A stretch of 64,000 nt of DNA from Haplodiscus bocki (lineage: Eukaryota), in contig OZ296649.1 of NCBI GenBank assembly GCA_965655095.1, positions 101,060,001 through 101,124,000 on the forward strand. The letters are read 5' to 3'. Within the stretch, counting starts at the first letter, position 1. Every line of letters starts with the position of its first letter. A program made the position numbers and the translations under genes. This document shows positions 38,718 to 38,879 of the stretch, one piece after another. The notes beneath the pieces are model-generated. The model did not search any database and was not told the origin of the DNA. It was given only the letters and a program-made list of their open reading frames with translations.

Positions 38718-38800
38718 GATGCGGTGGCCTAGTGGTCAAGACCTTCGGCCACGGGATTGGAACCCACTGTCGGCGCAGGTTCGAATCCGGGCTCGGGCGA
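38718..38800 (+). ncRNA. tRNA-derived Pol III unit (not a foldable tRNA); repeated in all six array units
   Basis: A box TGGCCTAGTGG at 38725-38735 and B box GGTTCGAATCC at 38778-38788. The acceptor stem does not pair. Other A boxes at 41119, 43527, 45934, 48330 and 50726. Confidence 0.65.
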
Positions 38801-38879
38801 AAATCTTGGAGATTCAATTGAATATCCAACTCACACCCCTCCCCGTTAATTCGGCGACGTCATATATATCCATACTACT
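38800..38879 (-). repeat. Maverick terminal sequence (putative TIR end and replication origin)
   Basis: Minus strand reads AGTAGTATGGATATATATGACGTCGCCGAATTAACGGGGAGGGGTGTGAG. AGTAGT is a typical Maverick terminus. The partner TIR is not seen. Confidence 0.7.

Follow-up and report, generated by a model that had tools for sequence, protein, structure and literature searches.

A tRNA-Ser-derived, Pol III-type unit in the terminal inverted repeats of an old Maverick family of Haplodiscus bocki

The terminal inverted repeats (TIRs) of one Maverick family in the Haplodiscus bocki genome carry a small, outward-facing unit of Pol III type that is derived from a host tRNA-Ser gene, retains the tRNA-Ser register and contains an antisense copy of a T-arm. 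Whatever its use, this unit was very probably once a transcribed Pol III gene. Our best explanation, to which we give roughly an even chance, is that it encoded an RNA of ~90 nt, predicted to be a hairpin, which might have engaged the small-RNA machinery of the host as a decoy or a precursor. The copy in the window, by which we mean the whole 64,000-nt stretch analyzed here, is a fossil with an interrupted terminator.

The window element and its terminal unit

The intact ORFs of a young sister family matched the window in order on the minus strand between 24180 and 38499 (tblastn, E 4e-79 to 8e-7) and carry Maverick domains, on which basis we identified the window element as a decayed Maverick. 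The gene for the protein-primed family B polymerase, in pieces at 24664-27233, matched its sister ORF at E 6e-61, and that ORF matches DNA_pol_B_2 (PF03175) at 1e-14. The rve integrase (31585-32751) matched at E 5e-51 a sister ORF that has a PF00665 match at 2e-8, and the A32-like packaging ATPase (35308-35979) matched at E 5e-43 a sister ORF whose match to Pox_A32, at 3e-4, is under the curated cut-off. Direct Pfam scans of the decayed window genes were near-blank, the integrase region reaching E 0.1 only. The window also matched sister ORFs of 439 and 140 aa, neither with a Pfam match, which are candidates for the double jelly-roll capsid and the cysteine protease. Homologues of the 439-aa ORF are named “F54H12.2-like”, the named ones, at 58% identity, being from an acoel. 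The left TIR or end of the window element was found neither in the window nor in the 10 kb upstream. The integrase gene is interrupted at 32780-34810 by an insertion of ~2 kb that contains a 660-bp duplication, and related DNA was also observed beside other Maverick copies.

Divergent from the unit is an EGF-like ORF that is 50% identical over 42 aa to the 96-aa ORF of the sister family (E 8e-14), which itself matches EGF in the PDB (E 3e-7). The first-pass annotation had described the two as head-to-head, with the ATG about 15 bp away. The arrangement was correct for the window, where the ATG is 11–14 bp from the putative transcription start, but the spacing is not a feature of the family because two of the 18 copies aligned have an ATG triplet there. 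Three Maverick families of the genome have, beside this same terminus, an EGF-like ORF whose N-terminal part is hydrophobic (the window ORF; L043:518-808; L126, L128, L130, L132 and L134), and our literature searches found no paper joining Maverick, Polinton and EGF.

Inspection of the unit bore out the consensus A box and perfect B box of the first-pass annotation, as well as the ACTACT terminus and the position of the first T4+ run on the plus strand (Table 1). Both boxes lie 100–155 nt inward of the ACTACT end, and their spacing of 53 nt, workable for a Pol III type 2 gene, is exactly that of the host tRNA-Ser genes. The left-end copies L007 and L008 aligned to the window only between 38880 and ~38730. 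No alternative letters were found among the positions listed for 38803-38808 in four sequencing runs. The view that the unit is not a tRNA was also upheld: ARAGORN made no call on it, and an Rfam search returned four chance-level matches only, with no tRNA match and, at E<=10, no VA RNA match. Across copies, the cells of the cloverleaf stems were paired at 48% (acceptor), 40% (anticodon) and 59% (T stem). Together, the ARAGORN result and the cloverleaf pairing ruled out a functional tRNA gene. The hairpin initially drawn between the boxes was mistaken, as its outer arms, tcggc and gtcgg, lack complementarity; in the RNAfold prediction it is 38754-38764 that pairs with the B box. For the window copy itself, folding was not superior to that of shuffles (z 0.41).

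Six copies of the unit are present in the window because the 2.4-kb element-host junction has been tandemly amplified. Contig depth over this array was ~6–7x that of the flank in three of four runs (two samples, one study), which argues that the array is not an assembly artefact; in the fourth run flank cover was too low to tell the array depth. A short common CAAC is present at the array junction. In array copies 2–6 the EGF ORF is truncated and ends inside the EGF domain.

Table 1. Coordinates of the unit, its signals and its surroundings in the window
Feature	Position	Strand	Remarks
Decayed Maverick/Polinton	23100..38879	-	pPolB, protease-like, capsid-like, integrase and ATPase genes in pieces
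EGF-like ORF	38371..38703	-	Divergent from the Pol III unit
TATA-like box	38689..38694	+	36 nt 5' of the A box; one mismatch to TATAAA
tRNA-Ser-derived Pol III unit	38715..38808	+	Predicted transcript ~92 nt, from a putative start
A box	38725..38735	+	Also approximate inner TIR edge in the window's subtype
Antisense T-arm copy (“anti-B arm”)	38754..38764	+	On the minus strand it amounts to another B box
B box	38778..38788	+	Exact GGTTCGAATCC; 53 nt from the A box start, equal to host tRNA-Ser
Family T-run terminator position	38803..38808	+	Interrupted in the window copy, longest run 2
Outer TIR, with C-rich run and ACTACT-ending Maverick terminus	38832..38879	+	Terminus at 38874-38879
First T5 in host flank	39035..39039	+	Expected stop point for any read-through from the window copy
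Six-copy tandem array of the 2.4-kb element-host junction	38474..52870	+	Copies 98–99% identical
Array copy 2 of unit	41109..41202	+	
Array copy 3 of unit	43517..43610	+	
Array copy 4 of unit	45924..46017	+	
Array copy 5 of unit	48320..48413	+	
Array copy 6 of unit	50716..50809	+	

Genomic copies, transcription signals and fold

A query of the unit plus terminus, which was biased to terminal copies, gave 29 matches, six of which were the array, and a unit-only query gave 31. The searches returned best candidates only, and copy counts are lower bounds. We scored 41 loci, with the array counted once and with L111 and L117 (tandem duplicates) and L014 (without the unit) dropped. The terminus motif, with at most one mismatch, followed the unit in 29 of these loci (background 28%). 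By the terminus, a protein match or common upstream DNA, 36 of the 41 loci were tied to a Maverick end or interior. Of the 17 new loci contributed by the unit-only query, 15 were Maverick-linked, or 16 with a further comparison.

The unit was found at both ends, facing outward, in four elements (C11, 10.4 kb; C2, 16 kb; C5, 25 kb; and a mini-element of ~250–280 bp), in agreement with its initial description as a tRNA-derived, outward-facing unit of Pol III type within the Maverick TIR. The TIRs of the C11 element are 80% identical over 146 nt and its flanks match at 5/6 positions (target duplication); the mini-element, at L094:1442-1689, consists of two joined TIRs and also has a 5/6 target duplication. 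These relatives thus show the TIRs with AGT-type ends and the 6-bp target duplication that mark a Maverick/Polinton. Paired TIRs were 76–81% identical, which indicates that the unit-bearing family is old. The partner ends of L008, L013, L107 and L010 were not found in the flanking stretches examined, and L185 holds only a truncated unit. At L092:1736-1793 and L112:1712-1784 a second, partial unit was observed ~200 bp inward of the terminal one. In viral contigs neither the double-B-box pattern nor any relative of the ATPase was found; five metagenome contigs contained ATPase relatives, none with the unit and none shown to reach a terminus.

The first-pass annotation had regarded the unit as lacking a terminator. 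This was true of the window copy, which is among the 13 of 41 copies with the T4 run interrupted or absent, and of all six array copies, none of which has a T4 before 39035-type positions. It was not true of the family: a run of T>=4 is present 8–26 nt 3' of the B box in 28 of the 41 copies (background, 18% of random windows) and a run of T>=5 follows the B box in 23 (background 7%), the runs just 3' of the B box being T4–8. Even among loci found with the window query, which is itself without the run, 14 of 22 scored had a T4+ terminator. These counts indicate that the family encodes a short terminated unit and not a run-off, and they displace the earlier proposal of a 160-nt run-off or read-through into the host as the family mechanism, since the family T-run would give ~90 nt. 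Read-through (~325 nt, to 39035-39039) could apply only to decayed copies such as that of the window.

Upstream, 21 of the 32 full-length copies have a TATAAA with at most one mismatch that starts at -39 to -30 from the A box (background 9%), exact in nine (background 0.4%); other 10-nt bins had such a box in 0–3 of the 32. The TATA-like box was found at both element ends: 14 of 18 copies that are EGF-side or EGF-side-like have it, as do 7 of 14 other copies, the upstream DNA of the latter being without detected homology to the EGF side, with remote homology possible. Among four host tRNA genes examined, one likewise has a TATA-like box, at -37, and the host tRNA-Ser gene is followed by a T4. 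As the host tRNA-Ser gene has both a TATA-like box and a T4, a captured host gene could have brought both signals passively.

Ungapped alignment of 32 copies to the host tRNA-Ser(AGA) in six segments gave identities of 0.72, 0.53, 0.07, 0.57, 0.89 and 0.26, and the window copy is identical to the host tRNA-Ser(AGA) gene L064 at 43 of 75 positions, also without gaps. The 7% identity in the center showed that the central 15 nt had been replaced. The replacement sequence is the antisense T-arm, which in most full-length copies is separated from the B box by a gap of 13 nt. The source of this arm may be a fold-back duplication or a second tRNA-derived repeat, the T-arm of which matches it in antisense over ~18–20 nt.

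With its central 15 bases replaced by the antisense T-arm, the cloverleaf gives way to a predicted hairpin. A hairpin of 24 pairs had 76% of cells paired versus 50% for the cloverleaf, in a model that was drawn from the same sequences used to score pairing. The inner helix of 12 pairs was paired in 311 of 381 cells (82%), and the outer nine pairs (192 of 287 cells, 67%) form a weak stem. When copies were folded individually, mean pair probability exceeded 0.4 for the inner helix in 18 of 32, for the outer stem in four and for the T stem in one. The mean folding z of the 32 copies was -0.95, by a statistic that treats related copies as independent. The B box is close to a palindrome, and an inverted copy of it, however it arose, is bound to give pairing. 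The covariation check on the copies gave nothing above shuffles, either with the hairpin model, whose score was reached by 308 of 500 shuffles, or with the cloverleaf model, and RNAalifold returned no consensus structure with 16 or 32 copies. Neutral decay after insertion would hide covariation, and for this reason the negative result neither refutes the fold nor supports it. A bidirectional Pol III unit was considered and found no support, as the minus-strand A-box-like tail is poorly kept between subtypes (0.53) and by eye there is no common minus-strand terminator.

Right-end copies were sorted by eye into three TIR subtypes, and identities were obtained from 18 copies. The unit was 0.69–0.72 identical between subtypes versus 0.70–0.79 within them, and the 5' part of the EGF ORF was 0.71–0.72 identical between them. 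In the 42 nt 3' of the T-run, identity between subtypes drops to 0.44–0.49. We consider this evidence of constraint moderate because the post-T-run stretch is C-rich and poorly aligned, subtype S2 is 0.49 identical even within itself, and a tree of the upstream DNA did not resolve S1 and S2 as clades.

In the ATPase tree, eight unit-bearing elements fell on one side of a branch with support of 100/99, with terminal lengths of 0.18–0.45 versus 0–0.03 in two sister families. In this genome the unit-bearing lineage is extinct. With a profile of the unit, no match was obtained in six family B elements, of which ~30 kb each was scanned, or at the scanned ends of ten additional polymerase loci, bar one that belongs to the unit-bearing family; in all, three sister Maverick families were without the unit at their scanned ends. 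The C-run and ACTACT end are similar in the sister families. In the young sister family, whose TIR is 72–77 bp, a near-perfect 198-bp palindrome made of short repeated motifs was observed 10 bp inside the EGF-side terminus (L043:1117-1313, G000:C12:21132116-21132312; also in L046, L047, L050, L055 and L136).

Proposed function, competing explanations and known systems

If the unit was an RNA gene, host TFIIIC would bind the boxes, with TFIIIB on the TATA-like box, and Pol III would start ~10 nt before the A box and stop at the T-run, leaving some 45–75 nt to the terminus, so that transcription from the gene's two copies per genome would never cross the replication origin. The T-arm and its antisense copy would be expected to pair in the transcript, so that the tRNA fold is lost and a 3' U tail follows a bulged stem as long as ~24 bp, and this hairpin RNA might then engage the host's small-RNA machinery, either as a decoy or as a precursor. 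By analogy with viral small RNAs, we tentatively suggest Dicer or Exportin-5 as the component engaged. Similarly speculative is the wider proposal that Mavericks encode a small RNA of their own, in which a tRNA-Ser gene became a Pol III hairpin RNA in both TIRs, converging on adenovirus VA RNA as a Dicer/Exportin-5 decoy against invertebrate RNAi and keeping an intermediate of the path from tRNA to dsRNA mimic, the T-arm locked by its antisense copy.

A role at the level of DNA, which we regard as a reasonable but rather improbable alternative, would have the paired B boxes and TATA box recruit TFIIIC and TFIIIB to the two termini, where they would form a chromatin boundary of the integrated element or aid the adjacent replication origin, with the RNA a by-product that the T-run keeps off the origin. 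The presence of the unit in both TIRs beside a conserved C-run and ACTACT end is consistent with such a role, as are the antisense arm, which amounts to a second B box on the opposite strand, and the placing of other modules, such as the 198-bp palindrome, in the same position by sister families. B-box boundaries are also known from inverted repeats of fission yeast. However, a site used for binding only needs no A box, no TATA box at a fixed distance and no terminator, all of which were kept, and the 3' tail that would serve as the minus-strand A box was not well kept between subtypes. It is unlikely that the unit was a passenger of no benefit to the element, that is, a host tRNA-Ser gene that was captured a single time, flanks included, at a terminus, then scrambled by fold-back or by a second tRNA-derived insertion and spread to both ends by TIR homogenization. 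Such an origin would agree with the confinement of the unit to one clade, with the sister families thriving without it at their scanned ends, with the missing covariation, with the signals already present around the host gene and with the palindrome-prone nature of Maverick ends in this genome. It would not readily explain why the unit was kept across at least three TIR subtypes whose neighboring DNA has diverged, nor why the TATA-like box is equidistant in left-end contexts without detected homology to the right end.

The two remaining explanations have little to commend them. A unit that by design lacks a terminator, giving a 160-nt run-off from the free genome and read-through into the host when integrated, is very improbable: the six array copies and the other run-less copies would fit it, but most copies have the T4 run, and those without it are equally decayed elsewhere (paired TIRs 76–81% identical). 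Although tRNA-derived heads are the rule in SINEs, according to the available text of PMC10886601, and an abundant repeat of this genome has the same T-arm in antisense, the possibility that the unit is the head of a dispersed SINE lying at this end by chance is scarcely credible, given that most of the new unit-only loci, and 36 of the 41 overall, were Maverick-linked and that no tail or dispersed family was seen among the best candidates returned.

The preferred reading, of a short Pol III hairpin gene, has parallels in several known systems, each of which the unit resembles by design, without being assigned to any of them. The host tRNA-Ser(AGA) gene L064 has the A box, the B box and their spacing in common with the unit, from which its acceptor, anticodon and variable arms have gone. 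B boxes in inverted repeats that flank a domain, without Pol III transcription, also characterize the TFIIIC-bound boundary elements (ETC/COC sites); the unit differs from these in having an A box, a TATA-like box and a terminator. Adenoviruses are protein-primed linear dsDNA viruses of the same broad lineage as Mavericks. As described in the available sections of PMC7589676, their VA RNA, proposed to originate from a tRNA, has internal A and B boxes, with box B within a stem, and a T4 terminator, all features with counterparts in the unit, and the analogy to VA RNA made in the first-pass annotation would seem the stronger for the family-wide terminator and predicted hairpin. VA RNA differs in its length of ~160 nt, its terminal stem, central domain and GGGU/ACCC element, its position inside the genome and its demonstrated action on PKR and Dicer (PMC7589676), whereas the unit has a predicted RNA of ~90 nt, is located in both TIRs and has no Rfam VA match. 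Given the missing Rfam match and the shorter predicted length, the unit was not assigned to the VA RNAs.

Going by the available text of PMC5622367, BLV pre-miRNA genes are type 2 Pol III units of 80–100 bp, and like these and the tRNA-miRNA genes of MHV68 the Maverick unit would be a compact type 2 gene with a hairpin that has boxes in or beside it. Transcription starts where the hairpin starts in the BLV-based design (PMC5622367), whereas the unit has ~25 nt before the stem and uses the B box as one arm, and MHV68 units keep the tRNA fold (PMC5622367), which the Maverick unit does not. Compared with a BLV-type pre-miRNA, which offers Dicer a suitable stem and yields products of 21–23 nt, the unit had a well-paired inner stem and a weak outer one. 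In the LTRs of Helenus, one of the TRIMp3 elements, a tRNA-like sequence with boxes A and B is a promoter that serves reverse transcription, and Helenus, Cassandra and Ajax share with the unit a Pol III promoter that arose from the gene of a small RNA and lies in a terminal repeat (PMC10886601, in the sections available). Their promoter makes the RNA template for reverse transcription (PMC10886601), whereas a Maverick is without an RNA intermediate and its unit faces outward, with a predicted stop after ~90 nt. The unit was not assigned to TRIMp3, a group marked by LTRs, PBS and PPT and by retrotransposition, as the repeats that carry it are inverted and flank Maverick genes; the words “Polinton” and “DNA transposon” are absent from the available main text of PMC10886601.

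The adintovirus paper, in its available text, makes no mention of VA RNA; for some related viruses that have other replicases, it indicates predicted tRNA genes (PMC8502044). A term search of the available text of PMC8363768 returned no mention of tRNA or Pol III. In literature searches whose coverage excluded most subscription journals, Repbase reports and supplements, we found no description of such a unit or small RNA gene in Mavericks, and no paper on Polintons and VA RNA. Mavericks are annotated by their protein genes. If our proposal is correct, a complete Pol III gene in the Maverick TIR would be a trick in common with adenoviruses, BLV and gammaherpesviruses, and the proposed route from tRNA to VA RNA could be read in it. 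The pattern of A box, B box and T-run provides a simple screen for Maverick TIRs across animals.

Other repeats in the window and genome

Three repeats were also recorded. The window contains a 59-bp tandem repeat at 12526-12998 (8 copies, 97% matches). An abundant repeat of more than 1.5 kb, with a sharp end and copies 68–80% identical (L146-L173, L175-L184), has a stretch resembling the 3' half of a tRNA, with a B box and T-run, ~170 nt inside its end. Lastly, a large tandem cluster at G000:C7:38933908-39031082 consists of tRNA-Ser(GCT)-like genes, some of which have altered anticodon loops.
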